From IMG/VR virus record IMGVR_UViG_3300040811_001959: 64,000 nt of DNA; one strand, written 5' to 3'. Shown here one piece after another: positions 29,903-55,978 of this stretch; within the stretch, counting starts at the first letter, position 1; each line of letters begins with the position of its first letter. Both the position numbers and the translations under genes were made by a program. The notes beneath the pieces are model-generated. The model worked only from the letters and a program-made list of their open reading frames with translations, did no database searches and had not been told where the DNA came from. Source of the DNA: a virus (Duplodnaviria > Caudoviricetes).

Positions 29903-29905
29903 ATA
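29898..29905 (+). promoter_or_regulatory. T4-type late promoter consensus TATAAATA
   Basis: Exact TATAAATA overlapping the fibre-3 stop, followed by AGGAG (29917-29921) 8 nt before ATG 29930. Confidence 0.6.
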
Positions 29906-29929
29906 ACACATAATATAGGAGTTTTTTTG

Positions 29930-32832: not shown

Positions 32833-33359
32833 ACTTTTACGTTTCTTATTTTGCAGATTCAAAAGAAGTCTGGCAATTTAGCAATGTACAGCCAGATAGT
32901 GATGATTTTATTGTAATTAATAAAATAGAAGATTTAGGAGGATTAGACGTAAGGAAAGATTGTATAACAAATTACAAAGTTAATTATGATAGTTTATTTG
33001 ACAAATATTATATAACAAGTAAAGTAGATGTAAGTAAAAATACTAGTTTTATAGAAATTAAAGAATTTGTGTATGCAGATATATTTATTGTTCAAGATTT
33101 TAAATCAAATAAATGGAAATTTATTTTATCAGATCAATGCCAAATAGATGATAATCCTGAAAAATTATATTTTTCAATATGTCAAAATAATAATCCTAAT
33201 ATTTTAATTAGATTAATTGAAATTAATTTTGATACTTTATATTATAGTAAAGAAATATTATTTCCTTTTCAGTATGAAATTGAAAATGATAAGGAAAAAA
33301 TAAGTATTTTTACGCACTATACTTCAATTAACTATTCTTATAAAAAAAATTATGAATAA
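32829..33359 (+). CDS. Hypothetical protein
   Basis: 176 aa, ATGA overlap with the upstream gene and 8-nt overlap with the downstream gene; no recognisable motif. Confidence 0.55.
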   Translation: MNFYVSYFADSKEVWQFSNVQPDSDDFIVINKIEDLGGLDVRKDCITNYKVNYDSLFDKYYITSKVDVSKNTSFIEIKEFVYADIFIVQDFKSNKWKFILSDQCQIDDNPEKLYFSICQNNNPNILIRLIEINFDTLYYSKEILFPFQYEIENDKEKISIFTHYTSINYSYKKNYE

Positions 33360-35898: not shown

Positions 35899-36122
35899 AT
35901 TTAGAAAATTTTAGTCTAAGAAAGCTACAAAAAGAAAGTTCTCGTGCGTTAGCTACAATAGAAGCAACAAATAATAATATATACCAATTTAATAAGAATG
36001 CACATCACGATAGTCAAAATTGGTATAAAACTGTAATTAAATGGTATGTAAAAGAATATGGAGGATTACCCAGTGAAGTAGGTCCTGGAAAAGAGATCAA
36101 GCTTTTAACAGAAAATGTATAA
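35895..36122 (+). CDS. Small hypothetical protein (75 aa)
   Basis: ATGA overlap upstream and 8-nt overlap with the radical SAM gene; fills the gap exactly. Confidence 0.6.
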   Translation: MNLENFSLRKLQKESSRALATIEATNNNIYQFNKNAHHDSQNWYKTVIKWYVKEYGGLPSEVGPGKEIKLLTENV

Positions 36123-37182
36123 TTACAAAGATATAAAAACAATTCATTTAGAAATAACACAAAATTGTCAAGCTTCATGTCCTATGTGTGATAGGAATCA
36201 AAACGGCGGTGCATTAAATCCTCACATAAACTTAGATGAATTAACAATTAATGATGTAAAAAATATATTCACACCGGATTTTATTTCTCAATTATCTACA
36301 ATGTATATGTGCGGTAATTTAGGCGATCCTATTGTTGCTCGTGATACATTAGAGGTTTTTGAATATTTTAGGAGTAATAATCCTAAAATGTGGTTAAGTA
36401 TGAACACAAATGCAGGAGCTAGAGATGAGAATTGGTGGCAAGAGCTTGCTAAAATTTATGGCAGGATGGGAGCTGTTATTTTTAGTGTAGACGGCCTACA
36501 GGATACTAATCATATTTATAGGCAAGGTGTAGTTTGGGAAAATGTAGAACGGTCTATGCGTAGCTTTACAAGTGCAGGAGGAAGAGGACGTTGGGACTTT
36601 TTAATTTTTGATCATAACCAACATCAAGTAGAAGAAGCGGAGCGTTTAAGTAAAGAATGGGGTTTTGAAAAATTTATTAAGAAAAAAACTGGAAGATTTG
36701 TAACCGCAAATGTTGAAGCAAAGGAAACACATCAAGCAGTAAATAAAAAAGGTAAAAAAACTGCCGAACTTGCAAAACCCAAAGACGAATTTCAAAATAC
36801 TGCTGTAAAAAAGTTGCCTACAATATTAGAAAAGTATGGAAGTATGGACAGCTATTATGATGTTGTTCCGATAAATTGTAAAGTAAAAAATGAAGGCAGT
36901 TTATTTATAACAGCAGAAGGTTTAGCTCTACCTTGTTGTTGGACAGCTGGCCGGATGTATAAATGGTGGCATGAAGATCCTAAAACAGAACAGATTTGGC
37001 ATTTTATTAAAGATAAATCGTTAATTGATGCAAAAAAAGGCCTGAAAAAAGTTTTTGAATCAAGTGTTTTTAAAGATATCGAAAATAGTTGGAGTAAAAA
37101 AAATTGCAAAGAAGGAAAATTAAAAGTTTGTGCAATTAAATGCGGAAAAGAATTTGATCCTTTTACTGCTCAATTTAAATAG
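36115..37182 (+). CDS. Radical SAM protein with C-terminal twitch/SPASM-like Cys region
   Basis: HLEITQNCQASCPMC (CxxxCxxC), MCGNLGDP, FSVDGL; C-terminal PINCK...FITAEGLALPCCW...VCAIKCG. Confidence 0.88.
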   Translation: MYNYKDIKTIHLEITQNCQASCPMCDRNQNGGALNPHINLDELTINDVKNIFTPDFISQLSTMYMCGNLGDPIVARDTLEVFEYFRSNNPKMWLSMNTNAGARDENWWQELAKIYGRMGAVIFSVDGLQDTNHIYRQGVVWENVERSMRSFTSAGGRGRWDFLIFDHNQHQVEEAERLSKEWGFEKFIKKKTGRFVTANVEAKETHQAVNKKGKKTAELAKPKDEFQNTAVKKLPTILEKYGSMDSYYDVVPINCKVKNEGSLFITAEGLALPCCWTAGRMYKWWHEDPKTEQIWHFIKDKSLIDAKKGLKKVFESSVFKDIENSWSKKNCKEGKLKVCAIKCGKEFDPFTAQFK

Positions 37183-37185
37183 TAT

Positions 37186-38454
37186 ATGTGTGGATTTTAT
37201 TTTACGAATATAAAACCTAAAAATTTTTATTTTTTAGATGTTATATCAAGAGGTTTAGATTATTGTGTTTTTGACTCCAATGATTATTTTGCTATACAAA
37301 GCGTGTTGCCTTGTGTTAATACAATAGATTTTACAATTTATGAAAGTAAAGAATATTTGTTTTTATATACAGGAGAAATTTACAATTATGATAGGAATTT
37401 TAATTCAGACACAGAAATGTTTTTTTATGATTTAATCCATAATAGAAATATTTCTAATTATAATGGTATGTATGCTTATGTGTTATACAATAAAAAAACA
37501 AAAAATATAAAATATGGCAGAGATAAAACAGGACAAATTCCCTTATTTGTTTATAATAAAGCAGGACAAATTATTATATCTAACACAATTAAAAGTATTG
37601 TTAAATCAATATCTCCAAGTTTGAATACAAATAGTTTGTTATTATGGAAAAAATCTAAACATTATATATTTAATGAGACACCTTGGCAAGATATATATCT
37701 AGTTCCTCCGTCAAGTACTGAAAGACTTGTTAACTCTAAAAAGACAATCAAAGAAACATTTCAAGAATTACAATTAGATTATGTATCAAAATTATCTGCT
37801 GCATCTATAAATAGTGGCGGTGTAGATAGTGGTATTGTTAGTAAATGGTTTGGACAATTTGAAGTTGCAATCAATCATGTTGGCAAAGACTTTGTAAGTA
37901 ATAAATTATCTTTTGCATTTGATGTAGAAGAAGACGAATGGATAGATTATGTAAATAATTTTATTCAAGATGTGTATCTTTTTCCTTACACGTGGAGTTG
38001 GGTAGGTTATTATATTTTAGGTAAAAAATTGCAAAAAAAAATTAATATTTTATACACTGGCGAAGGAGCAGATGAAATATTTGGCGGTTATCCAGGATAT
38101 GCAAAAGGTGAGAGAACTCCTTACTCTGATTATTTTCCGATTTATGGGAAAAATTTTTTAGTAGAAAATAAGTTAAGTGATCAAAAATATTTTATACCAA
38201 TTGCTACTATGGGAGCAAACTTAGCATTGGGTAATTTTTGTATAGAGGCAAGATCTCCATTCCTAGACAGACGTTTTTTGAATAATAAAAATTATTACAA
38301 AGAAAATGATAAGAAAATTTTGAAAGAATATTACAAAGAATTGTATAAAAAAGATTATTCAGCGAAGCAAGGATTTGCTGGATTTCCAGATGAGTATGGA
38401 AAAAATACAAGTTGGAAAGATGCATGTTTTGAACAGTTAAAAACACTTATTTAA
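37186..38454 (+). CDS. Asparagine synthetase B-like amidotransferase/amide ligase
   Basis: N-terminal MCG, GEIYN, RDKTGQIPLF, PP-loop SGGVDSG, TGEGADEIFGGY, EARSPFLD. Confidence 0.82.
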   Translation: MCGFYFTNIKPKNFYFLDVISRGLDYCVFDSNDYFAIQSVLPCVNTIDFTIYESKEYLFLYTGEIYNYDRNFNSDTEMFFYDLIHNRNISNYNGMYAYVLYNKKTKNIKYGRDKTGQIPLFVYNKAGQIIISNTIKSIVKSISPSLNTNSLLLWKKSKHYIFNETPWQDIYLVPPSSTERLVNSKKTIKETFQELQLDYVSKLSAASINSGGVDSGIVSKWFGQFEVAINHVGKDFVSNKLSFAFDVEEDEWIDYVNNFIQDVYLFPYTWSWVGYYILGKKLQKKINILYTGEGADEIFGGYPGYAKGERTPYSDYFPIYGKNFLVENKLSDQKYFIPIATMGANLALGNFCIEARSPFLDRRFLNNKNYYKENDKKILKEYYKELYKKDYSAKQGFAGFPDEYGKNTSWKDACFEQLKTLI

Positions 38455-38472
38455 TAATTAGGAATATCAATT

Positions 38473-39144
38473 ATGTCAAAAGGTAAAGTTACAGCATTTA
38501 TTCCTTGTAGAAAAGGAAGTACACGGTTAGGATTTGATAAACAATTAAGTTTATTTGCAAATACTACAACATTACTAGATATAAAAGTACAGCAACTTTT
38601 AGAAGCAAAAAAAATAGATAATGTTGTGCTTTCTACTGACGATGAAAAAATTTTTGAAAAGTTTAATAATATTGATAGAGTTTCTGTTTTTGAAAGAGAT
38701 AAAAAATTTTTAGAACTAACAGATGCAAATCATTTTGCAGATATAGCAGTTTCGCATATAAACGAAGGAAATATTTTAATAACTCATTGTACAGTACCTT
38801 TTTTTTCTAGATATGACGATGTAATTACATTTTTTAATGAAAACAATTTAGAATGTGTTATAACTGGTCGTAAAGTTGGCCATATGGTAGTAGAAAATAA
38901 TAAGATAGTAAATTGGGATATACAAAACAAAGGAGTTTGGCCACAAACTCAAAAATTACCGAATTGGTTTGAATTTTGTACTGCTGTAGAACCTCTTATG
39001 AGTTTTGATTTAATGAATAATTTAAGAAGTAGATTAAGTAATAAAATAAGTATTTTTGAAGTAAATGATTTAGAAGCATTTGATATAGATTATTTAGAAC
39101 AATGGCGTATTGCAGAAGAGATATGGAAAGCAAAGCAGAAATAA
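38473..39144 (+). CDS. Cytidylyltransferase, NeuA/KdsB (CMP-nonulosonate/Kdo synthetase) family
   Basis: AFIPCRKGSTRL..KQ, VVLSTDD, ITHCTVPF, FDIDYLEQWRIAE. Confidence 0.82.
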   Translation: MSKGKVTAFIPCRKGSTRLGFDKQLSLFANTTTLLDIKVQQLLEAKKIDNVVLSTDDEKIFEKFNNIDRVSVFERDKKFLELTDANHFADIAVSHINEGNILITHCTVPFFSRYDDVITFFNENNLECVITGRKVGHMVVENNKIVNWDIQNKGVWPQTQKLPNWFEFCTAVEPLMSFDLMNNLRSRLSNKISIFEVNDLEAFDIDYLEQWRIAEEIWKAKQK

Positions 39145-40851: not shown

Positions 40852-42243
40852 ATGGCAAAAGTATCTAATACATTTTGTATCCTTCCATGGGTACATTTAA
40901 GCACAAGACCAGACGGCTCTATGAGAGTTTGTTGCACAGCAAATGCAAGTTCAGTTGGACCTACTAATGATAAAGAATATGGAGGACAAATTGGTATTTT
41001 AAAAACTGAAGATGGCAAACCTAATAATTTAAATGTAAGTGATTTTGTAAGCAGCTGGAACAGTACATATATGAAAAATGTACGAAAACAAATGTTAAAT
41101 GGAGAAATACCACCTAGTTGTATAAAATGCTTCAAGGAAGAAGAAGCAGGACATAATAGCAAAAGAATGTGGGAAACACGGTATTGGAGCGAAAGAGTAA
41201 ATGTTGATAAATTAATTGCAGATACAAATGCGGACGGAAGTGTTCCTCCACAACTTACATATATTGATTTGAGATTTGGAACTAAATGTCAACTTGCTTG
41301 TGTGATGTGTTCACCACATGATAGTTCTGGTTGGATAAATGATTGGCAAGCAATATATCCGCAAATAGAAAATGTTTCTTTAAAAGAAACTATGCAATGG
41401 AAAGACAAAGGTAGTTATAATGGTAGTAGTTATAACTGGCATAAAAATAATCCAATATTTTGGGATCAGTTCTATGAACAAATTCCTAATATGCAACAAA
41501 TATATTTTGCAGGAGGCGAGAGTTTAATCATTGAAGAACATTATGATATATTAGAACAGTGTATAAAACAGGGTTATGCAAAAGATTTAGAATTACGTTA
41601 TAATTCAAATGGGGTCGAATGGAGAGATGATTTATTTGATCTATGGAAAGAATTTAAATTAGTAAGATTTCATTATAGTGTTGATAGCATTAAAGAAATG
41701 AATGACTATATTAGATATCCTAGTCAATGGAATAGAACTGAAGAAGTATTTCATTTGTTAGATACTGAGACTAGCAATAATGTAGAAGTTACAATAGCTT
41801 GTGCGGTCCAAGCTTTAAATATATTTTATATACCTGATTTTATAAAATGGAAACTACAGCAAAAATTTAACAAAGTAAATATGTGGCCTTTTGGTGCAGG
41901 TGGTGTAAATTATCATTTTGTTTATCATCCTCCGCATCTAAACGTTAAAATATTGCCAAAATGGTTTAAAGAAAAATGTCGTAAAAAGTATGAAGAGTTT
42001 TATCCCTGGTGGGAAGAGAACTGGGAATTAGGAATTCCTGCTTGGTATAAAGGAAAAGTTCAATATGCTGATTGGCGTAATGCCGGTTACGGAATTAGTA
42101 GATTAGAAGGAATGCTTCAATTTATGGAGTCGGAAGATTGGAGTTTAAGATTGCCAGAAACACGAGAATTTTTACAAAAGTGTAATAAACAAAGGAATTT
42201 AGATTTTAATACAATCTTTCCAGACATGGATAAGGTGTTTTAA
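40852..42243 (+). CDS. Radical SAM protein with N-terminal twitch domain
   Basis: FCILPWVHL..RPDGSMRVCC...CIKCF (twitch), DLRFGTKCQLACVMC, YFAGGES, YSVDS. Confidence 0.88.
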   Translation: MAKVSNTFCILPWVHLSTRPDGSMRVCCTANASSVGPTNDKEYGGQIGILKTEDGKPNNLNVSDFVSSWNSTYMKNVRKQMLNGEIPPSCIKCFKEEEAGHNSKRMWETRYWSERVNVDKLIADTNADGSVPPQLTYIDLRFGTKCQLACVMCSPHDSSGWINDWQAIYPQIENVSLKETMQWKDKGSYNGSSYNWHKNNPIFWDQFYEQIPNMQQIYFAGGESLIIEEHYDILEQCIKQGYAKDLELRYNSNGVEWRDDLFDLWKEFKLVRFHYSVDSIKEMNDYIRYPSQWNRTEEVFHLLDTETSNNVEVTIACAVQALNIFYIPDFIKWKLQQKFNKVNMWPFGAGGVNYHFVYHPPHLNVKILPKWFKEKCRKKYEEFYPWWEENWELGIPAWYKGKVQYADWRNAGYGISRLEGMLQFMESEDWSLRLPETREFLQKCNKQRNLDFNTIFPDMDKVF

Positions 42244-42265
42244 AAAATTAAAGATTAAGGAAAAA

Positions 42266-43078
42266 ATGTTTATTTTTCGTAAAAAGGATAAAAATGTCCC
42301 AGATAAAAATGTCTCAGATATAAAGTATCTAGATAAAAAAATTAGGATATATGGATGTAGTTTTACTTATGGAGTATGGCAAAAATATACAAAAGATGGA
42401 GCCCCACTATCACCACACACTGAGTCTTGGACAGGTTTTTTTGCAAAATTACTTCCTGAATACCAAATTATAAATTATGCTACACCGGGTTGCAGTGTAA
42501 AATGGGTGACTTATTTGTTTAATAAATTTAAAAAAAAATATCCAAATGATATACACATTACTCAAATACCACTTTTAGGAAGGCATAATTGGTGGGAAGA
42601 TGATTTATCTATTGAAGATATATACACGCCTTACAAGTATGAAGATATACCAAATTTAACAAAACATCGGCGAAATCACCGATATAGTCACCAACTATCT
42701 CCTTCAATACTTGAAAATTCTCAGCATTTTATACGCCCGTTTCGTATATGGACTAAACAAGAAATATCACGCTGGGGCAAAATGTATTTTGGTGGATTGG
42801 TTAATTTGGATCTTGAATTTATGGTTTGGTCATATTTTTTATATGATCATGCTGATTTTGCTTTTCATCAAAAAGGCCTCCAAGATTTTCCTGGCATGCT
42901 GAAAAGCGATAGTGATTATAAAAAACAAAATTTTATTTCTTTTTGGAATGCAATTGAACAAGAGCCAAGCTTAACAACTTACCTAGATTATATAGTAGAC
43001 GATGGACATCATTTAAATCCAGTAGCATTAGAATTTCAAGCTAATTGGGTATATCAAAATATAAAAAATTTATTATAA
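42266..43078 (+). CDS. SGNH/GDSL-fold hydrolase/acyltransferase-like protein
   Basis: Block I IYGCSFTYG, block II NYATPGCS, block V DDGHHLNP. Confidence 0.65.
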   Translation: MFIFRKKDKNVPDKNVSDIKYLDKKIRIYGCSFTYGVWQKYTKDGAPLSPHTESWTGFFAKLLPEYQIINYATPGCSVKWVTYLFNKFKKKYPNDIHITQIPLLGRHNWWEDDLSIEDIYTPYKYEDIPNLTKHRRNHRYSHQLSPSILENSQHFIRPFRIWTKQEISRWGKMYFGGLVNLDLEFMVWSYFLYDHADFAFHQKGLQDFPGMLKSDSDYKKQNFISFWNAIEQEPSLTTYLDYIVDDGHHLNPVALEFQANWVYQNIKNLL

Positions 43079-43080
43079 TT

Positions 43081-43986
43081 ATGGAAAGAGAAAAGCGAAG
43101 ATATCCTTTTGTACGGATAAACAATGAAGAAGAAATTGCGAATCATAAACATTATTTTTTAGATTACGAGCATCATCTAGTAGATTTAAAAAATATTAAT
43201 GTAATTCATGATATAGCATCTAAGTTACAGCCTGTTCGCACAGAAGAGGATGTGTTTACTAAGGAAGAACTAGATTGGATTTATGGTTTTGCATTTAGTA
43301 GGTGTAACACTGTAAGGAATAATGATAATGGAACAATTTTTGTAAGTGGCAATTTACAAGGAGTTTATGAAAAATTTAAAGATAAAATTAATTACCTAAT
43401 TCCAGGAGCAGATAAATCTCCAGTAGTAGGAGGAAATTATTTTATTACTCCTACTCAGTATGGGTTGCATAATGACAGTACAAGAGAAAATGACTGGAAA
43501 GATAGTTTAAAATTTATGGCAATAGATGGTAATATTAGGAAATATGTACCATGGAGAAATATAATTATTCCAATTTTTACAGGACCAGCTGATATCGAAT
43601 CGCATGCTATATTTTTTAAACAAAGGCACATTGATTATGCTCATGTATATCATCATGGCGTGAATCCTAACAAGAAAATTGCAACAACGTATCCAATTGT
43701 AAAAGATTATAGCACAATTAAGTTCCATTTATTAGGAAATCTTATACAAGAAGGAGAAAAAAATCTTGTTCCTTACGATAAAGAACATCATGAAAAATAT
43801 TTATATTATACTCCCTATAAAAGATTAACAGGACTCGAAGTAGAATCAACAGTAATGTGGAAACCTGGTTGCCCTATTGTTTTTGATGCTTTTCAACTAC
43901 ACGCAACTAATAAAGGATTTGAAAATAAAATGTGGGATTTAAAAATGGGGTTACTATTAACATTTTTACGTAAAGTTGATATATAG
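43081..43986 (+). CDS. Fe(II)/2OG dioxygenase-like (DSBH) protein
   Basis: YGLHNDS (HxD) and distal FDAFQLHAT. ATG 43081 follows the upstream stop at 43078 (track start 43045 overlaps). Confidence 0.6.
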   Translation: MEREKRRYPFVRINNEEEIANHKHYFLDYEHHLVDLKNINVIHDIASKLQPVRTEEDVFTKEELDWIYGFAFSRCNTVRNNDNGTIFVSGNLQGVYEKFKDKINYLIPGADKSPVVGGNYFITPTQYGLHNDSTRENDWKDSLKFMAIDGNIRKYVPWRNIIIPIFTGPADIESHAIFFKQRHIDYAHVYHHGVNPNKKIATTYPIVKDYSTIKFHLLGNLIQEGEKNLVPYDKEHHEKYLYYTPYKRLTGLEVESTVMWKPGCPIVFDAFQLHATNKGFENKMWDLKMGLLLTFLRKVDI

Positions 43987-43990
43987 TCAA

Positions 43991-46411
43991 ATGAATAATA
44001 TTAATGAAAAAATAATTTGTCCTGCAGTATGGGATCATTTATGTGTTAATACAAATGGCCATAACAGATTATGTTGTAATTCTAAAACTAGAGATTCCGA
44101 TACATTTTTGTACAATCTTGATAATCATTGGAACAAATATAGACTTGATATTAAACAGCAAATGTTAGCAGGTATTAAACCAAAAGAATGCAATTCTTGT
44201 TGGGATAAAGAGAAGAATAATATTACTAGTTTAAGAGAAACATTAGTAGAAAGATATAAGTTTTATAATTGGTGGGATGATTTTGTAAACTCTATTAACA
44301 TTCATAAAAAGTATCCTACAGAATGGGATTTAAAATTAGGAAATTTTTGTAATCTTAGTTGTAGAATGTGTAACAGTTATAGCAGCAGTAAATATGCAAC
44401 TGAATTAAAAAAAATATACAAAGAAACTGGATATGATTATGGTATAGATCCAAATGAAAGATATTTTGAACAATTAGAATGGTATAATTCAGATCTTTTT
44501 TATGACATTTTTAAAAAATCAGTAGATAATGGTTTAAAAGCCATTAAATTTACAGGAGGAGAACCATTGATGGTGCCTAATGTAAAAAAAATGATAGATT
44601 ATTGCATTAAAACCAATGTAGCTAAAAATGTAGAATTAAAAATTATTACCAATGCTACGCTTTTAGATGATGAATGGGTTGATAAATTTAAGAATTTTAA
44701 AGATGTGATTTTAAATTGTTCAGTTGATGGAGTTGGTGATATTTTTGAGTATATAAGACATCCTGCAAGTTGGGATACAGTTTATAAAAATTTGAATAAT
44801 CTTAAAGAAATAAAAACAAAAAATATAGTTTTTACAATTTCTTTCACTATGCAAATTTATAATATATTGCAATTACAAAAAATGATTATGTTAAGGAGAG
44901 AATTAAATGCACAAACTGTAAATGTAATACCTTTATCTGAGCCAAATTATTTTGATGCAAAAAATGCTCCGTTATTTTTAAAAAAACAAGCTATAGAACA
45001 AATTGATGGTATAGTAACAAAAAATCATTTCGAAGAAAGATTTGTAAACAATGCCAGAAGTAAAATTAACCAACAAGCTGATTCTAATGTTAACCAACTT
45101 TACAGTAAGTTAGTAAGTATTACCGAGCTTAAAGATAAGTATAAAAATCAAGATATATATAGTACTGAATTAGGTGAGGTTTTTTTGAAAATAAAACAAA
45201 TTGCAGAAAATGTAGATACAAATACTAAAAAAATTGGGAAGACATTTTGTGTCTTACCTTGGACTCATATAGCAACAAACTCAAATGGTAATCTTAGAGT
45301 TTGTTGTAATTCTGTATCCGGTAAAAATTTAATAAGGAAACCTAATGACGAGCCTTATAAGATATATAAGAAGGGAGAAGTAGTAGAAGCGTGGAATAGT
45401 GATTACTATAAAAATTTGAGGAAGCAATTTTTAAATGACGAAGTGCCTGACATATGCACAAGATGTTTTGATTTAGAAAAAAATGGCGTAAAAAGTCCAA
45501 GAAATGGATGGAATGAAAATTACTATGACGAAAATGCATTATATGAAGAAAATGCACCATTCAAAATAAAATATGTAGATATAAGATTAGGAAATCTTTG
45601 CAATTTAAAATGTAGGATGTGTAATCCCTATTCTAGTAATCAATGGGTAAAAGAATGGAAATTATTAGAAAAAGATTTTTTAGATACTGAGTTAGATAGA
45701 CTTGAACAATTGAACTGGCCAGAAAAATCTGCATTATGGGATAATTTAAAATTAGTTGCAAACGATGTTGTTATGATTTATCTTACTGGAGGAGAACCTA
45801 CTATAATAAAAGAACAACATAAATTATTAGATTATTTTTTAGATAACAATTTAGCAAAGAATGTTAAATTAAAATATAATACTAATCTAACAAATATTCC
45901 GCATCATTTATTAGATAAATGGAAAAAATTTAAAAATGTTCAAGTAAATTGTTCCATTGATGCTATTGGATCATTGGATAGATACATTAGGTATCCGAGT
46001 GATTGGAATACTATTGCAGAAAATTTTCAAATTGTAAAAAATTTAGAAAATTGCACAATAGAAGTACATTGTACTGTTCAAATGTATAATATTATGAGGC
46101 TATATGAAATTTTGGATTGGACAATGCAACAAAGAACAAAAATATATTTAAATGTGCTTCATCATCCGGATTATTTAAGTGTTAAAGTTTTGCCTAATGA
46201 ATTCAAAAAAATTATTTCAAAAAAATTACAAGAATTTACTTATATCAAAACTGTACCCGGTTTAATAAATTACATAAATTCAGATGATTGGTATAATAGT
46301 TTATTCCAAAAATTTGTCAAAAAAACCAAAATTATAGATTTCGAAAGGAATCAAAATTTTTTAGATCATGTGCCTGAATTTGAACAGTATTTTAAAACAG
46401 AAACTTTATGA
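43991..46411 (+). CDS. Tandem double N-terminal-twitch radical SAM protein (two complete units)
   Basis: Unit 1 CPAVW..NTNGHNRLCC..CNSC..LGNFCNLSCRMC..FTGGEP. Unit 2 FCVLPW..NSNGNLRVCC..CTRC..LGNLCNLKCRMC..LTGGEP. No stop between them. ATG 43991 preferred to TTG 43976. Confidence 0.88.
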   Translation: MNNINEKIICPAVWDHLCVNTNGHNRLCCNSKTRDSDTFLYNLDNHWNKYRLDIKQQMLAGIKPKECNSCWDKEKNNITSLRETLVERYKFYNWWDDFVNSINIHKKYPTEWDLKLGNFCNLSCRMCNSYSSSKYATELKKIYKETGYDYGIDPNERYFEQLEWYNSDLFYDIFKKSVDNGLKAIKFTGGEPLMVPNVKKMIDYCIKTNVAKNVELKIITNATLLDDEWVDKFKNFKDVILNCSVDGVGDIFEYIRHPASWDTVYKNLNNLKEIKTKNIVFTISFTMQIYNILQLQKMIMLRRELNAQTVNVIPLSEPNYFDAKNAPLFLKKQAIEQIDGIVTKNHFEERFVNNARSKINQQADSNVNQLYSKLVSITELKDKYKNQDIYSTELGEVFLKIKQIAENVDTNTKKIGKTFCVLPWTHIATNSNGNLRVCCNSVSGKNLIRKPNDEPYKIYKKGEVVEAWNSDYYKNLRKQFLNDEVPDICTRCFDLEKNGVKSPRNGWNENYYDENALYEENAPFKIKYVDIRLGNLCNLKCRMCNPYSSNQWVKEWKLLEKDFLDTELDRLEQLNWPEKSALWDNLKLVANDVVMIYLTGGEPTIIKEQHKLLDYFLDNNLAKNVKLKYNTNLTNIPHHLLDKWKKFKNVQVNCSIDAIGSLDRYIRYPSDWNTIAENFQIVKNLENCTIEVHCTVQMYNIMRLYEILDWTMQQRTKIYLNVLHHPDYLSVKVLPNEFKKIISKKLQEFTYIKTVPGLINYINSDDWYNSLFQKFVKKTKIIDFERNQNFLDHVPEFEQYFKTETL

Positions 46412-47793
46412 AAGTAACAAACGCCATTGTAAATATTGCAAATGATAGCAATAATGTAGGATTTTTATTTTGGAATGATTATTATATAAATAGGAAAAAG
46501 TATAAATTCCATGCAAAGTACGCAACAGAATTAATGAATTTAACAATAACTACTACTAATGCCTCGTTTGATCAAAATATAAATTTTATAACAACAAATA
46601 ATATTAATGAAGGATTGCAATTTTATAAAAAATTAAATTTTGAAGTAGTTATAGTACAAACTCCTGGTCATATTTTAAAAGGTAATTTTTTAACTGAATT
46701 ATTAAATTATACTAATACCTTAGATTGGTCTTTAATTGGACATATCTTAGATAAAGGTAATTGGTTAACACTTCATGATCAATGTTTTGTAATAAATTTA
46801 ACAAAATTTTTTGACAACGAATTAGATTTTAATATAGAAAAGCAAAATTTACTTGTTCCGTTATATGATCGAAGTTTTGATAATTTTCACGATAATTATA
46901 CTCCTAAGTTTGTAAAATTTAATAATAATTTTAGCAAAATGCAAGTAGGGTTTGCAGCAAATATTTTATCAAAGTCTTTATTAACTAATTCGTTACATAT
47001 TTTTCCTGAAAGTATAAGAAATACCAAAACCCATCTTTATCCTGAAAATGATATGCATTATGAAGATTGGAATGGCATAGGATTAACTGATGTTAAAGGT
47101 AATCAGTTATCTCAATTAACTAAAATTATTGAAAATCATGCAAATCCTAAAAGCAGGCAAATTCATTTTTTTAACAATGAAAGTTGTAACATAGATAGAA
47201 TTAAAAAGTTTACAAAAAAAGAAAAATTTGAAAACTTAATTGTTCCTGCTAGTGGATTTTATGCTAATCAATTCTTAAAACATTTTGATGTTAAAAAAAT
47301 TATATTTTTTGATATAATGCCTGACATTTTAAATATTAAAAAAGAATTAGACAAAATATGGGACGGTTCACAAGAAAAATTAGATGAAATCAGTTATAAA
47401 CACAAAGATATAATATTTGATAGTAGTAAGGAAAAAAAATTAAAGGATATGTATGTAAATGATTTATATAGTTTTACTAAATATAAAGAAGTTTTAAAAG
47501 AATATGTAGAGATTGATATTATTCAATTGCCTGAAAGATTTGTAGACATTGTTCCTAAAAATGGAGACACGTTTATATGGTTAAATTCTATTTACACTTA
47601 TTGGTATAATCTTTGGTTACATAAGCCACACAACATTGTAGAATCATATATAACATTGATGAAGTCTTTAGCTAAAAATAAAAATAAAATTTGGATAGAA
47701 GTAAAAGATCCGTTAGGAGGATATAAACTATTTGAAAAAAATGATTTTTTCCTGGATTATGCTTATAAAAGTGGTTATTCATTATGGACTTAA
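46408..47793 (+). CDS. Hypothetical protein; possible degenerate GT-A-like N-terminus plus SAM-binding Rossmann-like C-terminus
   Basis: N-half LIGHILD...LHDQCFVINL...RSFDNFHDNYTP; C-half LIVPASGF...IIFFDIMP...IDII...FIWLNSI. Confidence 0.4.
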   Translation: MKVTNAIVNIANDSNNVGFLFWNDYYINRKKYKFHAKYATELMNLTITTTNASFDQNINFITTNNINEGLQFYKKLNFEVVIVQTPGHILKGNFLTELLNYTNTLDWSLIGHILDKGNWLTLHDQCFVINLTKFFDNELDFNIEKQNLLVPLYDRSFDNFHDNYTPKFVKFNNNFSKMQVGFAANILSKSLLTNSLHIFPESIRNTKTHLYPENDMHYEDWNGIGLTDVKGNQLSQLTKIIENHANPKSRQIHFFNNESCNIDRIKKFTKKEKFENLIVPASGFYANQFLKHFDVKKIIFFDIMPDILNIKKELDKIWDGSQEKLDEISYKHKDIIFDSSKEKKLKDMYVNDLYSFTKYKEVLKEYVEIDIIQLPERFVDIVPKNGDTFIWLNSIYTYWYNLWLHKPHNIVESYITLMKSLAKNKNKIWIEVKDPLGGYKLFEKNDFFLDYAYKSGYSLWT

Positions 47794-48416
47794 AACAATT
47801 AGCAAAGCTAAGATGTGCATGGGTAAAAATGAATTATGAAGTGCCATCATCAGATATATTATTTGAATTTAAACGAATACAACATTTATTAGTAAATCAT
47901 CGCACAGATTATTCTTACGGTTGGCAAAGTTTAACTTTGCATGGGCATAATTTACATTGGACAGAAGCTATAGATAAATATCCTGGATATGAAGATCAAA
48001 TTGATTCTAATTTCGATTATCACTGGACTGAGCTAGCAAAGGAATGTCCGATTACCACAGAGTTTATTAGTTCTCTACCATATAGTAAATTACATAGGGT
48101 AAGATTTATGCTTTTACGTAAAGGTGGTTATATTAGGTTCCATAGAGATACAGACAAATTAACATTATCACCATTGAATATAAGCATAAACAATCCTAAA
48201 AATTGTTCTTTTATTGTATATGATGATATTTTAGATATTGAAAAAACTATTCCTTTTGATGATAGTACTAGTTTTCATGTAAATATTGGTTTACGACATG
48301 CGGTTTTTAATAATTCTAATGAAGACAGACTGCATATTATAGTTCATGGTAATCATATAAAAGATTTTAATTTAATATGTCAAAATTTAATTGTTAATTA
48401 TGATAAGGAAATATGA
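47784..48416 (+). CDS. Aspartyl/asparaginyl beta-hydroxylase (AspH/LpxO)-family 2OG oxygenase
   Basis: RVRFMLLRKGGYIRFHRD...LNISINNP..C.F...NIGLRHAVFNNSNEDRLHIIVH. Confidence 0.78.
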   Translation: MDLKQLAKLRCAWVKMNYEVPSSDILFEFKRIQHLLVNHRTDYSYGWQSLTLHGHNLHWTEAIDKYPGYEDQIDSNFDYHWTELAKECPITTEFISSLPYSKLHRVRFMLLRKGGYIRFHRDTDKLTLSPLNISINNPKNCSFIVYDDILDIEKTIPFDDSTSFHVNIGLRHAVFNNSNEDRLHIIVHGNHIKDFNLICQNLIVNYDKEI

Positions 48417-49582
48417 TAGATAAAGATACTTTTTGCTATGTTCCTTTTAAAGAATTATATTTTGAGGAATTGTATGGAGGAAATATAAGGAGTTGTTGCA
48501 TACAAGATATAAAAGACGAAATAGATAGTAATGATGTTTTTGAAAATGATCCAAATATATGGTTTTTAAAAGCAAACAAGCGTATAAAACAATTGCGTAC
48601 AGCTTTTGTTAAAGGCCAAAAACCAAAAGAATGTTGGAGATGTTGGAAATTAGAAGATGATAATGCAGTAAGTTATAGACAAAAATGGAATAGGCGGTAT
48701 CAGAATGAAACTAGAGCCGTCAGCTTACGAGTTATAGATATACGATTAAGCAATAAGTGCAATTTGCAGTGTAAGATGTGTGGTCCGCACTTTAGCGATC
48801 AAATAGGAAAAAATGTTTTAGAAGCAGTTAAACATACCAATTATAAAAATGAATTTCATAATAATAATTTTAGGCCTACAGATAATAAATTATTATTTAA
48901 TTTAAAAAATAGTCTTCCTCAAAATAAAACTATAGAAAAAATAAAATTAGGCGGCGGCGAACCTATGATTATGGATGAAGTTGAAGATTTTTTACAGGCT
49001 TTGGTTGAAAAAGGTAGGACAGATTTAGATATTTTTGTTTTAAGTAATTGTACAACAATTAAAACAAGTATAATAGATATATTAACAAAATTTAATAAAG
49101 TTGAAATAAGCTGTAGTATTGATGGAGTAGGTAAGTGGATAGAATACCAAAGATTTCCATGTAGTTGGAAAAGTATCGAAAGAAATTTTAAAAGGTTACA
49201 AGATGCAGGAATTACCGCAACCCTAACCCCTTGTTTTTCAATGCTAAATATTTTAGGATTAGCAGAATATATTGACTGGGTAAATTCGTTAGGCATTGTT
49301 TATACATCATTTAATGAAGTTCATTTTCCTAGTTGTTTGCATTGGTCAGTGATTCCTATAGATTTTAGGAAAGACTTAAACGATAGGTTAGAAAATATTT
49401 CTTTTAAGGTGCCTAGATCAGAACATTTATTTACAAGTATAAAGCATAGATTAAAAACTGAGCATAGGCTATTAACAGATGCCGAAAAAGATACGTTAAG
49501 GAATAAAATATTATTATGGGATTATAACAATAAAATTAAATTTAAAGATTTTGTACCTTTTTACAGAGAATTAAATTTATGA
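48413..49582 (+). CDS. Radical SAM protein with N-terminal twitch domain
   Basis: FCYVPF...RSCC...CWRCW; DIRLSNKCNLQCKMC; KLGGGEP; CSIDG. Confidence 0.88.
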   Translation: MIDKDTFCYVPFKELYFEELYGGNIRSCCIQDIKDEIDSNDVFENDPNIWFLKANKRIKQLRTAFVKGQKPKECWRCWKLEDDNAVSYRQKWNRRYQNETRAVSLRVIDIRLSNKCNLQCKMCGPHFSDQIGKNVLEAVKHTNYKNEFHNNNFRPTDNKLLFNLKNSLPQNKTIEKIKLGGGEPMIMDEVEDFLQALVEKGRTDLDIFVLSNCTTIKTSIIDILTKFNKVEISCSIDGVGKWIEYQRFPCSWKSIERNFKRLQDAGITATLTPCFSMLNILGLAEYIDWVNSLGIVYTSFNEVHFPSCLHWSVIPIDFRKDLNDRLENISFKVPRSEHLFTSIKHRLKTEHRLLTDAEKDTLRNKILLWDYNNKIKFKDFVPFYRELNL

Positions 49583-50817
49583 ATTCACAAAAAAACATTG
49601 TTTGTAGTAAGATGTGGACAGATATAAATGTTAGAATACCATATAAAAGTATTATCAATTGTTGTAAAAAAGATAACACAGTTGTATCTTTAGAAGAAAT
49701 ACAAGAAAAAGGTATAGATGTTTTTCATTTTAGGAAAGAAGAGTATGATGACAAAAAGCATTTTGTAGAAAATAATTGGTTTCCAAAAAATTGTAGAAAT
49801 TGCGAACAAAATTGGCCAAATAGTATTTGGAATAGGTGGAATAAATGGAGAGAAAAAACAACGGATGAAGTAGCAGAATTTCCTTTACTGTCATTGGAAA
49901 ATAATATGACAGAATATATTGAAATTATGTTGTCTACAGTTTGCAATCAAACATGTATGTATTGTGGAAGTCATACAAGTAGTCTCTGGGCAGAGTTAGA
50001 AGGGCTAAAACAAACTGAAGATACAGAATATTTAAACCTAGTTTTAGGAAATATTTATGAATTTGTAGATAAAAAACAAATAGATAATGTTACTTATAAT
50101 TTTTTAGGTGGTGAGCCATTTTTAGATCTACGATTTAATAGTGTACTAGATAATCTTGTTAATATACATAAAAAAAATAATACACATATTGCCAGATTGT
50201 TAATAACTACAAATTTAAATATAAAAAGAAAAATTTTACAAAATTTTTTGTCCAAGTGGAACTCGTATAATTTAGATAAAACAAAGTTAGTAATATGTCC
50301 AAGTATTGATAGGATTGGGCGTATGGGGGAAATAATTAGAGATGGTTTAAATTTTAATTTATTTGATAGCAATATAGATTTGTTATGTGATTATGCAAAA
50401 AGAAATAATAATTTTAGGATTAGTTGGTCGCCAGCAATTAATTTGTTAAGTATTTCTGGTCACTTAGAATTGCTGCGTTATATTGAAAACAAATGTTCTA
50501 ATATGAATAGCGTTCACCAATGGACTATAGGAGAAAATTTCATAAATGGTCCTTTACCTATGCATCCCGGTTTAGCACCAGAAAGTTATAAAAATTACAT
50601 GGACGAATCTATGCAATTATTAAAAAATCACGAACACTTAAAACGACATATGCACTGGTGTAAGTACATAAAAAACATGATAGGAACAAAAAGGCAATCA
50701 AGTACATTAAATGGTGCTGCAAAATGGTATAAAGAAAAAGGAAAAATTAAAAGTATAAATTATTTTTCGGTATTTCCTTTTCTAGATGAAATTTTAAATA
50801 CAAATGCAAATGAATAA
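49579..50817 (+). CDS. Radical SAM protein with N-terminal twitch domain (divergent)
   Basis: VCSKMW...NCC...CRNC; EIMLSTVCNQTCMYC; NFLGGEPF; ITTN; PSID. Confidence 0.85.
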   Translation: MNSQKNIVCSKMWTDINVRIPYKSIINCCKKDNTVVSLEEIQEKGIDVFHFRKEEYDDKKHFVENNWFPKNCRNCEQNWPNSIWNRWNKWREKTTDEVAEFPLLSLENNMTEYIEIMLSTVCNQTCMYCGSHTSSLWAELEGLKQTEDTEYLNLVLGNIYEFVDKKQIDNVTYNFLGGEPFLDLRFNSVLDNLVNIHKKNNTHIARLLITTNLNIKRKILQNFLSKWNSYNLDKTKLVICPSIDRIGRMGEIIRDGLNFNLFDSNIDLLCDYAKRNNNFRISWSPAINLLSISGHLELLRYIENKCSNMNSVHQWTIGENFINGPLPMHPGLAPESYKNYMDESMQLLKNHEHLKRHMHWCKYIKNMIGTKRQSSTLNGAAKWYKEKGKIKSINYFSVFPFLDEILNTNANE

Positions 50818-51427
50818 TAATAGATTAGTTACTTTTGGTTGTAGCATTACTAAAGGAAGTGGTTTGTCTGACGTAACAGATAACAATTCTCATTCTATGT
50901 ATGCTTGGCCTAAAATATTAGCAGATAAGTTAAAACTTGAATGTGAAAATAAAGGGCATGGAGGAGCATCTAATAAACAGATTTCGCATGATATTTTTAC
51001 CTTTAATTTCCATCTAACTGATGTTGTGATAATTTTATGGTCTCATTGTGATAGATATGTTTTTTTTAAAGATAACTATGAATATCAAACTTTTGGACCA
51101 TGGAAAATTGATAAATTAAGTCGTATTTTCTATAAAAAATTTTGGAATAGGTATGATGGTGTTTATTCAACATTAATACATATGAATGCAGTAAATAGAT
51201 ATTTAGAAAATTTAAACTTAAAATATTATAATTTTTTATTAGACCGTCTTTACATAGAGGGAACTATAAGTAATAAAAAAACTCTGCAAAATTTGTATAA
51301 TAGTTTAAATGTGCAGCCAATTGATTTTGTGCCTTATAGAAATTATGGCGAGGCTCCTGACGGTCATCCAAATGAAATATGCCATTTGAAATTTGCTGAA
51401 GCAATATTTCCGTTAATAAAAGTGTGA
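50804..51427 (+). CDS. SGNH/GDSL-fold hydrolase/acyltransferase-like protein
   Basis: LVTFGCSITKG, NKGHGGASN, PDGHPNE..H. Confidence 0.7.
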   Translation: MQMNNNRLVTFGCSITKGSGLSDVTDNNSHSMYAWPKILADKLKLECENKGHGGASNKQISHDIFTFNFHLTDVVIILWSHCDRYVFFKDNYEYQTFGPWKIDKLSRIFYKKFWNRYDGVYSTLIHMNAVNRYLENLNLKYYNFLLDRLYIEGTISNKKTLQNLYNSLNVQPIDFVPYRNYGEAPDGHPNEICHLKFAEAIFPLIKV

Positions 51428-51430
51428 ATT

Positions 51431-52552
51431 ATGAATACTAATCTACAATGGTCTAGTTATGATTTTACAAAAATACCATTTGATAATTTAGTCCAAGTTG
51501 GTCAACGAACACTATTATATAGAGATCTTTTTACAGTCTCGTGGTTATTAGGTAGATATTGTAATTATCGCTGTTCTTATTGTTGGCCATATGCAAGATC
51601 AAATACAAAAGATCACAGGCCTACAAAATTATGTCTATTAACTATAGATGAAATAAAGAAGCAGGCTAGGAATAATGGATTTAATAGTTTTCATTTTAGT
51701 TTGTCTGGCGGAGAGCCTACATTCCATCCAGGATATTTAGACATTCTAAAATATCTTGCAGATGATGTTTCTAACACAAATTATACAAGTATACATATGA
51801 CTAGTAATTGTTCTAGACCGATGGAATGGTTTAAACAGTATGTTGAATATGCAAAACCATTTCATAGGGCAAGTATTACTGCAAGTTTACATACTGAACA
51901 TGTTTGCACAAAAGAACAGATGCAAGATTTTGCAGATAAATTAATTTTATGTCAAGAAAACGATATACAAATTACAATTAATCAAGTAATGGTGCCAGAA
52001 TGGTTTGACAGAGATTGGGAAAATGCATTGTTTTTTCACGAACAAGGAATAAATGTAACACTTAAACCACAGAGCGATCCTACTGCTAGTCGTGTTGTTG
52101 ATGGGTATACAGATGAACAGCTAAAAAAATTATGGAATGGAATGCCGCAGCGTGCCTATACAGAATCTAAGCGTAAATGGCAAGATCGTCCAAAACCAGC
52201 ATACGATATCAATCCAGGAATAATGGGTAAGAATGATGCAAGTGTTCCTTGGCATATGCAAGTAGAATTTACTGATAAAGATGGAAAAAAATGGTACATG
52301 GACCAGGCAGAACGCTTTAATGCTTTTAATTTTAACAAATTTAAAGGCTGGAGTTGTAATGCAGGTTATCAAGGTATTATAATCCGTGAACCTGACGGAA
52401 GTGTGAAAAGGAGTTATAGTTGCCATGATGTTCCTTTAGGAAATATTGAAACTGGATTTAAATTATTTAAAAAACCAGAATTTTGTATAACTGACAGTTG
52501 TGTGTCAAGTGCCGACAGTAAAATACCCAAAGTAAAGATATGGAACTTGTAA
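51431..52552 (+). CDS. Radical SAM protein with C-terminal twitch-like Cys region
   Basis: WLLGRYCNYRCSYC, SLSGGEPT, MTSN; C-terminal WSCNAG...PDGSV..SYSC...C..DSCVSSAD. Confidence 0.88.
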   Translation: MNTNLQWSSYDFTKIPFDNLVQVGQRTLLYRDLFTVSWLLGRYCNYRCSYCWPYARSNTKDHRPTKLCLLTIDEIKKQARNNGFNSFHFSLSGGEPTFHPGYLDILKYLADDVSNTNYTSIHMTSNCSRPMEWFKQYVEYAKPFHRASITASLHTEHVCTKEQMQDFADKLILCQENDIQITINQVMVPEWFDRDWENALFFHEQGINVTLKPQSDPTASRVVDGYTDEQLKKLWNGMPQRAYTESKRKWQDRPKPAYDINPGIMGKNDASVPWHMQVEFTDKDGKKWYMDQAERFNAFNFNKFKGWSCNAGYQGIIIREPDGSVKRSYSCHDVPLGNIETGFKLFKKPEFCITDSCVSSADSKIPKVKIWNL

Positions 52553-53061
52553 AAGAAATTGATTTTAATGTAGATATTAAAAAATTACAGATTCTCACAT
52601 CACAATATTTGAATCACAGTTTTGTAATAAGAATGAATGGATTTTCTATACAGCATAGAAAAGCAGTTGTAGATCCTTGGAATTTTGTTGACGGACTAGA
52701 GAGTGGCAAATTATATCAAAATTTTTCAGAAAAAGAATTTTCAAAAATAAATGAAAAGTTTATTAATACAGAGTTTGAAAGGATTATTAATTATTTTTCT
52801 TTATTTAGGACAAGGATTATGATTATGTATAGAAAAACTTGTTATAGTCTACATCAAGACGCAACTTGGAGACTTCACGTACCAATTATTACTGATGATA
52901 ATTGTTTCTTTTATTTTCCAAAACATAAACAAGATTTCAGGTTAGAACAAGGCAAGGCATATCTGGTAAATACAACGGAAAAACATACATTTGTTAATAG
53001 CTCAAATGATCAACGAGTTCATTTAGTTGGATGTATAGATATTAAGGATTATTTATGTTAG
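52540..53061 (+). CDS. AspH/LpxO-family 2OG oxygenase
   Basis: RTRIM.M..K.CYSLHQD..WRLHVPIIT...C.F...YLVNTTEKHTFVN.S...RVHLV. Confidence 0.78.
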   Translation: MELVKEIDFNVDIKKLQILTSQYLNHSFVIRMNGFSIQHRKAVVDPWNFVDGLESGKLYQNFSEKEFSKINEKFINTEFERIINYFSLFRTRIMIMYRKTCYSLHQDATWRLHVPIITDDNCFFYFPKHKQDFRLEQGKAYLVNTTEKHTFVNSSNDQRVHLVGCIDIKDYLC

Positions 53062-55310: not shown

Positions 55311-55978
55311 TTACATATATGGATCTTGTTAATCTTTACATTCCTAACAAAGAAAAAGTTGCACAAGAAATATTATCTTTACCAGATGATGATTGGTACT
55401 GGATTAAATTTCATGGTGCATGGATGTGTAGTTTATATAATGCTAGGCCTGATGTTGGCTGGTTTGAACAATACAGTTTTAATCCTAATTTACCAAAAGA
55501 ATCAGCATCTGTTGTTGCTTTACGTGACTACATTTTTCCTTATATTGGTGGAGTTGGGAATGTTACGGTTATTAAAACGAAACCTGGAGAAATGTTGAAA
55601 GATCATGTGGATAGTGCGCCAGCAGAAGTTGGTGGCATGCAACATAAATTTAGATGGGTTGTTAAAGGCAAAAAAAAGAATACACTTTATTTTTTTGATG
55701 AAAATAGTAATAAACATTTCTATGCACCACAGACTGATGCATATGTTATAAACGGTTCGCATCCCCATGGTATGATTAATACAGGTAGTGATATCAAATT
55801 GACTGTTTGTATAGGATCTCCTTGGAAACCTAACAAAGAATATCATAGTAACATTGAAAGTTTATTGTATACTTGCATACCATTTCCAAAAGAAATTAAA
55901 AAAGAATGGAACGATCCTAGATTCTATAATGAAAATAAAATAGGTTTAGGTGTTACAGAGTTTAAGCAGAAGCTTTGA
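55298..55978 (+). CDS. AspH-like/DSBH Fe(II) oxygenase
   Basis: VTVIKTKPGEMLKDHVD (HxD)...KFRWVV...YVINGSHPHGMIN. Confidence 0.62.
   Translation: MDKIITYMDLVNLYIPNKEKVAQEILSLPDDDWYWIKFHGAWMCSLYNARPDVGWFEQYSFNPNLPKESASVVALRDYIFPYIGGVGNVTVIKTKPGEMLKDHVDSAPAEVGGMQHKFRWVVKGKKKNTLYFFDENSNKHFYAPQTDAYVINGSHPHGMINTGSDIKLTVCIGSPWKPNKEYHSNIESLLYTCIPFPKEIKKEWNDPRFYNENKIGLGVTEFKQKL

Follow-up and report, generated by a model that had tools for sequence, protein, structure and literature searches.

Permuted N-terminal-twitch radical SAM domains in a glycosyltransferase-linked gene string of a T4-like marine phage

The virus record IMGVR_UViG_3300040811_001959 (Duplodnaviria; Caudoviricetes) provides a stretch of 64,000 nucleotides, hereafter "the window", in which positions 40852 to 50817 encode an array of radical S-adenosylmethionine (SAM) enzymes. 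We found that this array consists of four open reading frames (ORFs) whose five domains all belong to NF033640, an NCBIfam family (N_Twi_rSAM) named "twitch domain-containing radical SAM protein", and that in all five a cysteine domain of the SPASM/twitch type stands in front of the radical SAM barrel. The radical SAM (rSAM) genes are designated by letters, according to their start position, as A (36115), B (40852), C (43976/43991, with C1 and C2 for its halves), D (48413), E (49579), and F (51431); the other genes are named by their start coordinate.

The 64-kb window belongs to a low-GC (~28%) T4-like myovirus, an estuarine/marine jumbo phage. It includes structural genes for a gp5-like hub, gp25, a gp6-like wedge protein (36% identity to that of the Agrobacterium jumbo phage Atu_ph07), and tail-collar fibers. 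Thus, the initial annotation, made without database searches, was right in taking the array as phage-encoded. The rSAM genes A to F are part of a string of genes (29927-55978, ~26 kb) that all lie on the plus strand, abut or overlap each other with a largest gap of ~60 nt, and follow the tail-fiber genes in the same orientation.

Part of this picture was already known: NF033640 is a catalogued family, and rSAM cassettes were reported in 2020, together with GT8 and lipopolysaccharide (LPS)-type genes, in the hypervariable host-recognition cluster of pelagimyophages (Zaragoza-Solas et al. 2020, PMC7029224). The phage context that the initial annotation saw for the family is, to this extent, not wholly new. 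The cluster described in PMC7029224, from pelagimyophages and cyanomyophages, comes without the identity of the rSAM family, the backbone formed by 33352, x75, A, B, and F, the permuted architecture, and the arrays of Bdellovibrionota. The new elements are that the cassettes belong to the permuted N-terminal-twitch (N-twitch) family, that the backbone is conserved, that the family is mainly viral but also forms arrays in Bdellovibrionota, and that the arrays are composed of old lineages.

A cysteine domain in front of the radical SAM barrel

In the NCBIfam scan, B (40852..42243) reached 410 bits on NF033640, whose curated cut-off is 170 bits, and covered positions 1-397 of the 398 of the profile. 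C (43976..46411), a fusion of two N-twitch domains (~43991-45205 and 45206-46411), obtained 660 bits in two stretches and D (48413..49582) 250 bits, both above the cut-off. The start of C can be placed at TTG 43976 or at ATG 43991, and gene callers choose the latter, which gives a protein of 806 aa. E (49579..50817) covered positions 3-397 of the profile but, at 132 bits, stayed under the cut-off. We therefore regard it as a divergent relative of NF033640, not a curated member; all eight cysteines described below are kept in it. The radical SAM Pfam model PF04055 matched B, C, and D above its cut-off and E below it (18 bits). The features of the superfamily (CxxxCxxC, GGE, and a partial TIM barrel) are all present. 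Coherently, the models of anaerobic sulfatase-maturating enzymes (anSME), PqqE, and MoaA gave at most 62 bits against the 250-660 of NF033640, and the proteins do not group with these characterized enzymes. The expectation that an NCBIfam family of N-terminal-twitch proteins exists, and that these ORFs belong to it, was thus confirmed for B, C, and D.

Aligning the five domains (residue numbers of B) revealed eight invariant cysteines: C9, C27, C28, C90, and C93, followed by C146, C150, and C153. The first five are contained in a front domain of ~110 residues that precedes the AdoMet-radical barrel in B, C1, C2, D, and E, and the GGE motif is invariant across the five. Family-wide conservation was judged on an alignment of 117 diverse sequences, in which each of these eight positions is either invariant or a cysteine in at least 90% of cases. 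The order of motifs initially read by eye was largely recovered: the five N-terminal cysteines lie ahead of CxxxCxxC, and the motif D/E-hydrophobic-x-L/F-G/S-x-x-CxxxCxxC is present in all five domains, while S-S-x-W is exact in B and E, approximate in C2, and absent from C1 and D.

The Pfam SPASM model (PF13186) matched the front part of the second domain of C (residues 425-497) with 26.7 bits against a cut-off of 21.5; likewise, in the precomputed annotation of the B orthologues, PF13186 is listed ahead of PF04055. SPASM and twitch domains have been described as C-terminal extensions, twitch being the truncated form with one auxiliary cluster, and the auxiliary cluster of BtrN is ligated by four cysteines (PMC9012708). 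In B, C1, C2, D, and E, the domain is N-terminal and, compared with this definition, it is therefore a permuted SPASM/twitch variant. On the basis of its cysteines, it presumably holds one auxiliary [4Fe-4S] cluster. The resemblance to BtrN-type enzymes includes the barrel with CxxxCxxC and GGE combined with one extra SPASM/twitch-type cysteine domain, and a number of cysteines sufficient for the full ligation of one auxiliary [4Fe-4S] cluster, as in BtrN; the differences are the N-terminal position and the five invariant cysteines, including a CC pair. BtrN itself was absent among the listed sequence or fold matches, which are dominated by tied generic rSAM barrels.

Outside the cluster ligands, the polar residues R78, E97, S103, R105, N253, D278, and R288 are invariant or near-invariant across the family, a pattern of conservation that could reflect a common substrate handle. 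Furthermore, some viral rSAM clusters encode stand-alone proteins of ~100 aa with a twitch-like C...CC...C pattern (L047:20450-20755, L058:7231-7521, and L060:13781-14077, where L numbers denote related loci). The cysteine domain may thus occur as a separate polypeptide, a possible origin of the permutation.

The two rSAM genes that flank the array, A (36115..37182) and F (51431..52552), had been thought to carry a half-SPASM domain at the C-terminus. The spacing of the cysteines agrees with this, both in the Cys-rich tail of A (C255-x18-C274C275 ... C331, C339, C343) and in the four C-terminal cysteines of F (C309-x21-C331 ... C352-x4-C357). The domain assignment was not borne out: the Pfam scan of A and F gave no SPASM match, and the profile comparison between the N-twitch domain and the two tails was not significant (E 0.03-0.14).

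The AlphaFold2 model of B, built on the 117-sequence alignment, is of high quality (pLDDT 93, pTM 0.92). Solved structures align to its barrel only (residues ~133-430; ~126-430 for the SPASM maturases and anSME), and the best of them (BlsE, CteB, SkfB, viperin, anSME, and MoaA) tie at Z 10.3-11.3, with Foldseek TM values of ~0.3-0.36. Full-length matches were found in AlphaFold DB (TM 0.75-0.78), all of them uncharacterized and unnamed, and the nearest ESM Atlas clusters are 96-100% viral. Sequence and fold searches of the PDB returned generic barrel matches only, with no characterized member of the family, and we found no paper citing NF033640. In line with the initial annotation, which held that the family has no known reaction, no characterized member emerged from the PDB, the names in AlphaFold DB, or the literature.

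Conservation of the locus and distribution of the family

B has 2,213 relatives at E <= 1e-10, the best 120 of which are 78-94% identical to it; relatives occur on 239 IMG/VR contigs, the best 80 of these at 77-91% identity. Synteny was evaluated on 160 related viral loci, the 80 closest and 80 more diverse ones. Across these loci, the order of the backbone is fiber-like genes with the 29927 family, the GT8-like pair, 33352, x75, A, a variable stretch, B, a second variable stretch, and F. The backbone rSAM enzymes are well conserved (A with a median identity of 65%, B and F with ~80%, the latter reaching 79-84% in related loci). The linkage of 33352, A, B, and F is kept even where B is only 41-45% identical, and among the 80 diverse loci there are 41 in which 33352 keeps its synteny with A, B, and F.

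The closest 80 loci contain a mean of 8 CxxxCxxC domains (range 2-14), of which a mean of 3.5 per locus (range 1-7) show the N-twitch cysteine signature. In other phages, C1 and C2 are separate adjacent genes (46-51% and 52-59% identity, respectively), and a trio composed of an N-twitch rSAM, a 46408-like protein, and an Asp/Arg hydroxylase recurs as a cassette. The closest relative of each domain in other phages is 91% identical for B, 51% for C1, 59% for C2, 40% for D, and 41% for E, against an identity of at most 32% among the paralogs of the window; coherently, the phylogenetic tree places each domain of the window in a supported clade with other phages. Taken together, these two lines of evidence indicate that the array was assembled from old lineages. 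A recent tandem duplication, considered as the origin of the array, was rejected, since each domain is closer to its relative in other phages than to the paralogs beside it.

DNA nearly identical to the window was detected in estuary, seawater, and marine-plankton metagenomes from at least 10 studies. A megablast search of the rSAM cluster against deposited phages gave no match, and tblastn of B gave only matches of at most 26% identity, in Vibrio and Ralstonia jumbo phages.

A profile built on the five domains was searched against 1.84 billion cluster representatives; it retrieved 20,486 of them at E <= 1e-3 and, at E <= 1e-30, 6,138, the latter being clusters counted at 50% identity. Many of the representatives are two-domain fusions. 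Among the matches listed in pattern searches with the same alignment, 592 of 599 from IMG/VR were relatives, against 135 of 600 from a far larger genome collection: viral collections are much richer in the N-twitch family than cellular ones. Most members derive from metagenomes and from estuarine or marine samples, in agreement with the initial annotation, in which the family came mostly from uncultured aquatic sequences.

The cellular members belong mostly to metagenome-assembled genomes (MAGs) of Bdellovibrionota, some of them on megabase contigs, with as many as 11 rSAM genes arranged in tandem. The flanks of these arrays include the genes for UvrA, Pol I, DnaX, Mfd, EF-G, and FtsH, and such housekeeping neighbors indicate that the arrays are truly chromosomal. 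Three Bdellovibrionota loci (L140, L106, and L082) carry chromosomal arrays of 7-11 rSAM genes, many of them N-twitch. The L140 array adjoins a homolog of asparagine synthase (AsnB), as in the phage, and a GT2 gene adjoins the array of L109. Among the neighbors of cellular members (n=109), 27 are further rSAM genes, and nothing else is recurrent; genes resembling F, A, the hydroxylases, and 33352 are also present in some cellular loci. The cellular sequences do not stand together in the tree but fall into 23 clades dispersed among the viral ones.

Two loci labeled as bacterial MAGs, L081 (Gammaproteobacteria) and L102 (Neisseriaceae), carry x75 and the phage backbone, and they are probably phage contigs mis-binned into bacterial genomes. 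The family does not belong to housekeeping operons. Neither of the two outcomes that would have refuted the initial annotation, a grouping with anSME, PqqE, or MoaA and a mainly cellular housekeeping context, was thus observed. Lastly, family members of L113 (Paenibacillus sp.) and L118 adjoin small ORFs resembling acyl carrier proteins (ACPs), which suggests a carrier-linked pathway in some bacteria.

Partner genes and the possible substrate of the array

Upstream of A lie two GT8-like glycosyltransferases that are paralogs of each other (31200-32030 and 32023-32832) and contain DxD motifs. Their family profile matches glycogenin-1 (GT8) across the DxD region (E=1.6e-5), and D101 and D103 are invariant in the family. 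They are followed by 33352 (33352..35898), a backbone protein of 848 aa composed of two GT-A-like domains and a C-terminal class-I methyltransferase fold. Its AlphaFold2 model is patchy (mean pLDDT 61), with confident regions at 1-120, 310-540, and 650-848. Foldseek matched the former part to the GT-A enzymes RmlT, WrtF, SunS/ThuS, LH3, and Mimivirus R699 (9e92) and the methyltransferase part to TehB-type class-I enzymes. Searches of 33352 against the PDB by phmmer and by profile gave no match, the fold search alone being informative, and its outcome agrees with sub-threshold atlas leads. The initial annotation had described the rSAM genes as standing next to glycosyltransferases (GTs) and oxygenases; indeed, oxygenases are interleaved with them, while the GTs are located upstream (31200-32832 and 33352-35898).

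The stop of 33352 and the start of A are both overlapped by x75 (35895..36122), an ORF of 75 aa that is called by external pipelines. On the basis of these overlaps, x75 is probably translationally coupled with both neighbors. It is strongly conserved over its whole length (ATNNNIxQFNKxAHHNSxNWY...YGDLPSxxGPGKD), has no Cys and no repeats, and was found in 61/80 loci in one set; with 73 viral loci, it is the only recurrent small ORF. It had no family match, and the atlas search gave unnamed viral clusters at sub-threshold scores only. The complex prediction of A with x75 had a score of 0.00, which is no verdict and speaks neither for nor against binding.

As regards the timing of expression, the string is headed by TATAAATA (29898..29905, plus strand), located 22 nt before ORF 29927. 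We take this sequence to be the core of the T4-type late promoter, and here it would act as such. The whole window contains 8 copies against 26.8 expected, a depletion of about three-fold, with every shuffle containing at least 8; of the three plus-strand copies, only that at 29898-29905 is just upstream of a gene start. This depletion fits the use of the sequence as a late promoter that is avoided elsewhere and, as a sequence signal, suggests that the string is expressed late with the structural genes. Three metatranscriptome studies contain short contigs that are identical to portions of 29927, B, and 42266; as DNA carry-over is possible, they are weak support for transcription, and we do not count them as proof, just as the stretches without such contigs carry no information.

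The first gene of the string encodes a Ser/Thr/Gly-rich protein of 310 aa (29927..30859), with a 12-sequence alignment and no Pfam or PHROG match. Its family is kept after the fiber genes in related phages, and the protein is a candidate structural protein or a candidate target of the enzymes encoded downstream.

The reading that we tentatively favor, quite possible although short of probable, is that the glycosyltransferases of the phage itself make a glycan or glycoconjugate, which the rSAM enzymes, expressed late, tailor by combinatorial radical chemistry. In this scheme, the GT8 pair and 33352 would be the builders, and hydrogen abstraction by each rSAM paralog would take place at a sugar or position of its own. 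The second electron would pass to the auxiliary cluster, a role that has been proposed in the case of BtrN, with oxidation, epimerization, dehydration, or C-C/C-methyl chemistry as possible outcomes. Cassettes, typically made up of an N-twitch rSAM, a 2-oxoglutarate (2OG) hydroxylase, and partners of no known family, are inserted into the conserved module, and their swapping would vary the surface chemistry between phages. A different glycan position for each paralog had already been put forward in the initial annotation, and it is still the leading hypothesis, backed by gene association only.

Two arguments lead us to prefer a glycan. The stronger is that A, B, and F have been linked since ancient times to 33352 and the GT8 genes, in a string that is probably late and structural; the other is the lack of a precursor-peptide family in the clusters, where x75 is the only recurrent small ORF. 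The same string also encodes a CMP-sugar-type cytidylyltransferase (38473..39144; CTP_transf_3, with weak PseF/KdsB similarity) and an asparagine-synthase-like amidotransferase (37186..38454; Pfam GATase_7 and Asn_synthase, with NCBIfam models far below their cut-offs). Moreover, BlsE, a sugar/nucleoside-sugar enzyme, is among the nearest solved barrels (Z 11.3), tied with others.

Virus-encoded glycosylation of virions occurs in chloroviruses, on mimivirus fibrils, and in mycobacteriophages, with GTs and sugar-modifying enzymes encoded near structural genes. We know of no viral virion-glycosylation system with radical SAM arrays. Mimivirus R699 is, as stated above, among the fold matches of 33352, and for the present phage virion glycosylation is a prediction from its genes.

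Several observations weigh against a glycan substrate. All the support for it is guilt by association; the window has no complete pathway of nucleotide-sugar synthesis; none of the unannotated ORFs inside 40852-50817 matched a GT family; and E, as reported above, scores below the family cut-off. The cellular arrays are mostly without a recurrent GT neighbor (2 of the 109 neighbors are GT2). The peptide-modifying SkfB, CteB, and anSME reach Z 10.7-11.2 against the 11.3 of BlsE, and oxygenases of the Asp/Asn-hydroxylase family, nitroreductase, and B12-binding rSAM are equally typical of peptide tailoring.

These last points open the way to an explanation that we consider unlikely, in which the rSAM enzymes, together with the oxygenases, the nitroreductase, the methyltransferase, and the B12-binding rSAM, act on virion proteins and alter the side chains or backbones of their amino acids. 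The targets would be the tail fibers, the 29927 protein, the giant protein of 5521 aa, or x75, as in the tailoring of peptides that are made by the ribosome and modified after translation (RiPPs) and proteusins, applied to structural proteins. The cluster is located right after the fiber genes in the same orientation, its enzyme mix resembles peptide-tailoring sets, and both glycogenin-type GT8 and SunS/ThuS-type GTs act on proteins. SPASM maturases and anSME (SkfB 6efn, CteB 5wgg, SuiB 5v1q, and anSMEcpe 4k36), among which SkfB and CteB are sactisynthases, are joint-best fold matches, and SkfB is also the best PDB sequence-profile match (E=8.7e-12); however, these alignments are limited to the barrel, with 9-17% identity. 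Many peptide-modifying SPASM enzymes carry an N-terminal RiPP recognition element (RRE), the very position that the cysteine domain occupies here. Hidden Markov model (HMM) searches flagged no RRE, although remote ones could be missed, and the N-twitch proteins also differ from those enzymes in that they lack both a SPASM domain at the C-terminus and a precursor peptide in the vicinity. Indeed, no precursor-peptide-like family of small ORFs emerged from the 160 viral loci; x75, conserved from end to end, does not look like a leader and core. The Bdellovibrionota arrays of 7-11 rSAM genes are similarly without evident peptide genes.

Distinctly less likely, in our opinion, is a chemistry acting on a free metabolite, for instance a nucleotide (as for viperin and MoaA), a lipid, or a carrier-bound intermediate, to yield a cofactor-like, antimicrobial, or host-manipulating compound. 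Such a role is hard to reconcile with the structural/host-recognition location and with the linkage to a GT fold across distant phages, and the cassette-wise hypervariability suits surface diversification better than a fixed pathway. Prokaryotic viperin and MoaA are, it is true, the second-tier HMM matches, and BlsE (7vob, a cytosylglucuronate decarboxylase), viperin, and MoaA, which act on nucleoside or nucleotide-linked substrates, have barrel Z scores of 11.3, 10.8, and 10.3, respectively; yet their HMM matches are weak, far below the family cut-offs (MoaA 62 vs 284 bits), and their auxiliary domain is located elsewhere. Most cellular arrays are without GT neighbors, and some cellular members adjoin ketosynthase domains or the ACP-like ORFs of the Paenibacillus locus and L118. 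The window itself has a gene of the dienelactone-hydrolase family, a weak aminotransferase match, and an ORF judged desaturase-like by eye.

Within the glycan reading, a minor share of the likelihood goes to a host target, with the same chemistry altering the envelope of the host (O-chain, LPS, or capsule) and blocking superinfection. This was proposed for the glycosyltransferases of this region in PMC7029224, and LPS and capsule loci typically contain GT8, Kdo/Pse-type cytidylyltransferase, and AsnB-like genes. The position in a presumably late structural string, headed by a late-promoter-like motif, would suit virion assembly better than early exclusion.

Other genes of the window and implications

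Between the cytidylyltransferase and B lies a pair of paralogous ORFs (39102-39911 and 39932-40792) that share the motif HPGxTL(V/I)RA. Inside the array, B is followed by a putative SGNH-hydrolase-like protein (42266..43078), recognized by its GCSFTYG motif only and with no HMM match, and by an HxD...H protein (43045..43986) that looks 2OG-oxygenase-like by eye; the latter has no Pfam match and precedes C1/C2 orthologs elsewhere. C is followed by the 461-aa cassette partner 46408 (46408..47793), which recurs in 27/80 loci and had no HMM match, and by a 2OG oxygenase of the Asp/Arg-hydroxylase family (47784..48416; PF05118), with a homolog in 33/80 loci. A second putative SGNH-like protein (50804..51427), with the GCSITKG motif only, separates E from F.

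Downstream of F, Pfam matches identified an Asp/Arg hydroxylase (52540-53061), a nitroreductase-family flavoenzyme (53055-53837), and a TauD-family dioxygenase (54510-55310), and a methyltransferase (53849-54502) is suggested by matches below the Pfam cut-offs (best Methyltransf_12, 25.3 bits vs 30). Searches with Pfam, NCBIfam, and PHROG HMMs gave no match for seven ORFs of the string (39102, 39932, 42266, 43045, 46408, 50804, and 55298).

The string converges with a minus-strand block (55962-63282) that begins with a B12-binding rSAM (55962..58145) resembling KedN5-family C-methyltransferases (NF033712, 194 bits vs a 700-bit cut-off). The block also includes a dienelactone hydrolase, an Asp/Arg hydroxylase, the weak aminotransferase match (below the Pfam cut-off), and a TauD dioxygenase, as well as several HxD...H proteins and a histidine-box membrane protein judged desaturase-like by eye. 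With this content, the tailoring island reaches beyond the plus-strand string, and the Pfam tally amounts to three oxygenases of the Asp/Arg-hydroxylase family, two TauD dioxygenases, one nitroreductase-family protein, and one dienelactone hydrolase.

On the other side of the window, a giant ORF of 5,521 aa (6991-23556, plus strand) lies between the baseplate wedge gene and the fiber genes, and it may be the counterpart of the giant "VrlC" of pelagimyophage host-recognition clusters (PMC7029224). No tRNA genes were found in the window.

Among the reactions performed by radical SAM enzymes with auxiliary clusters are some of the most difficult in biology, and most families of these enzymes are without an assigned function. 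The N-twitch family, a very large one, has its main concentration in abundant phages of marine and estuarine waters, where it occupies the variable part of a presumed host-recognition region. Its genomic logic, with a GT-linked backbone, swappable cassettes, and probably late expression, makes its function testable. If the product decorates virions, the locus would represent a new route of phage surface variation and a source of new enzymology. Speculatively, and with some doubt, the permuted rSAM cassettes of marine phages and, independently, of Bdellovibrionota could be a combinatorial kit that rewrites a virion-attached glycan or the fiber surface. If so, the chemistry of host recognition would be diversified enzymatically, and not only by mutation of the fiber sequence, and new radical SAM reactions on carbohydrates or proteins would be found in these arrays.

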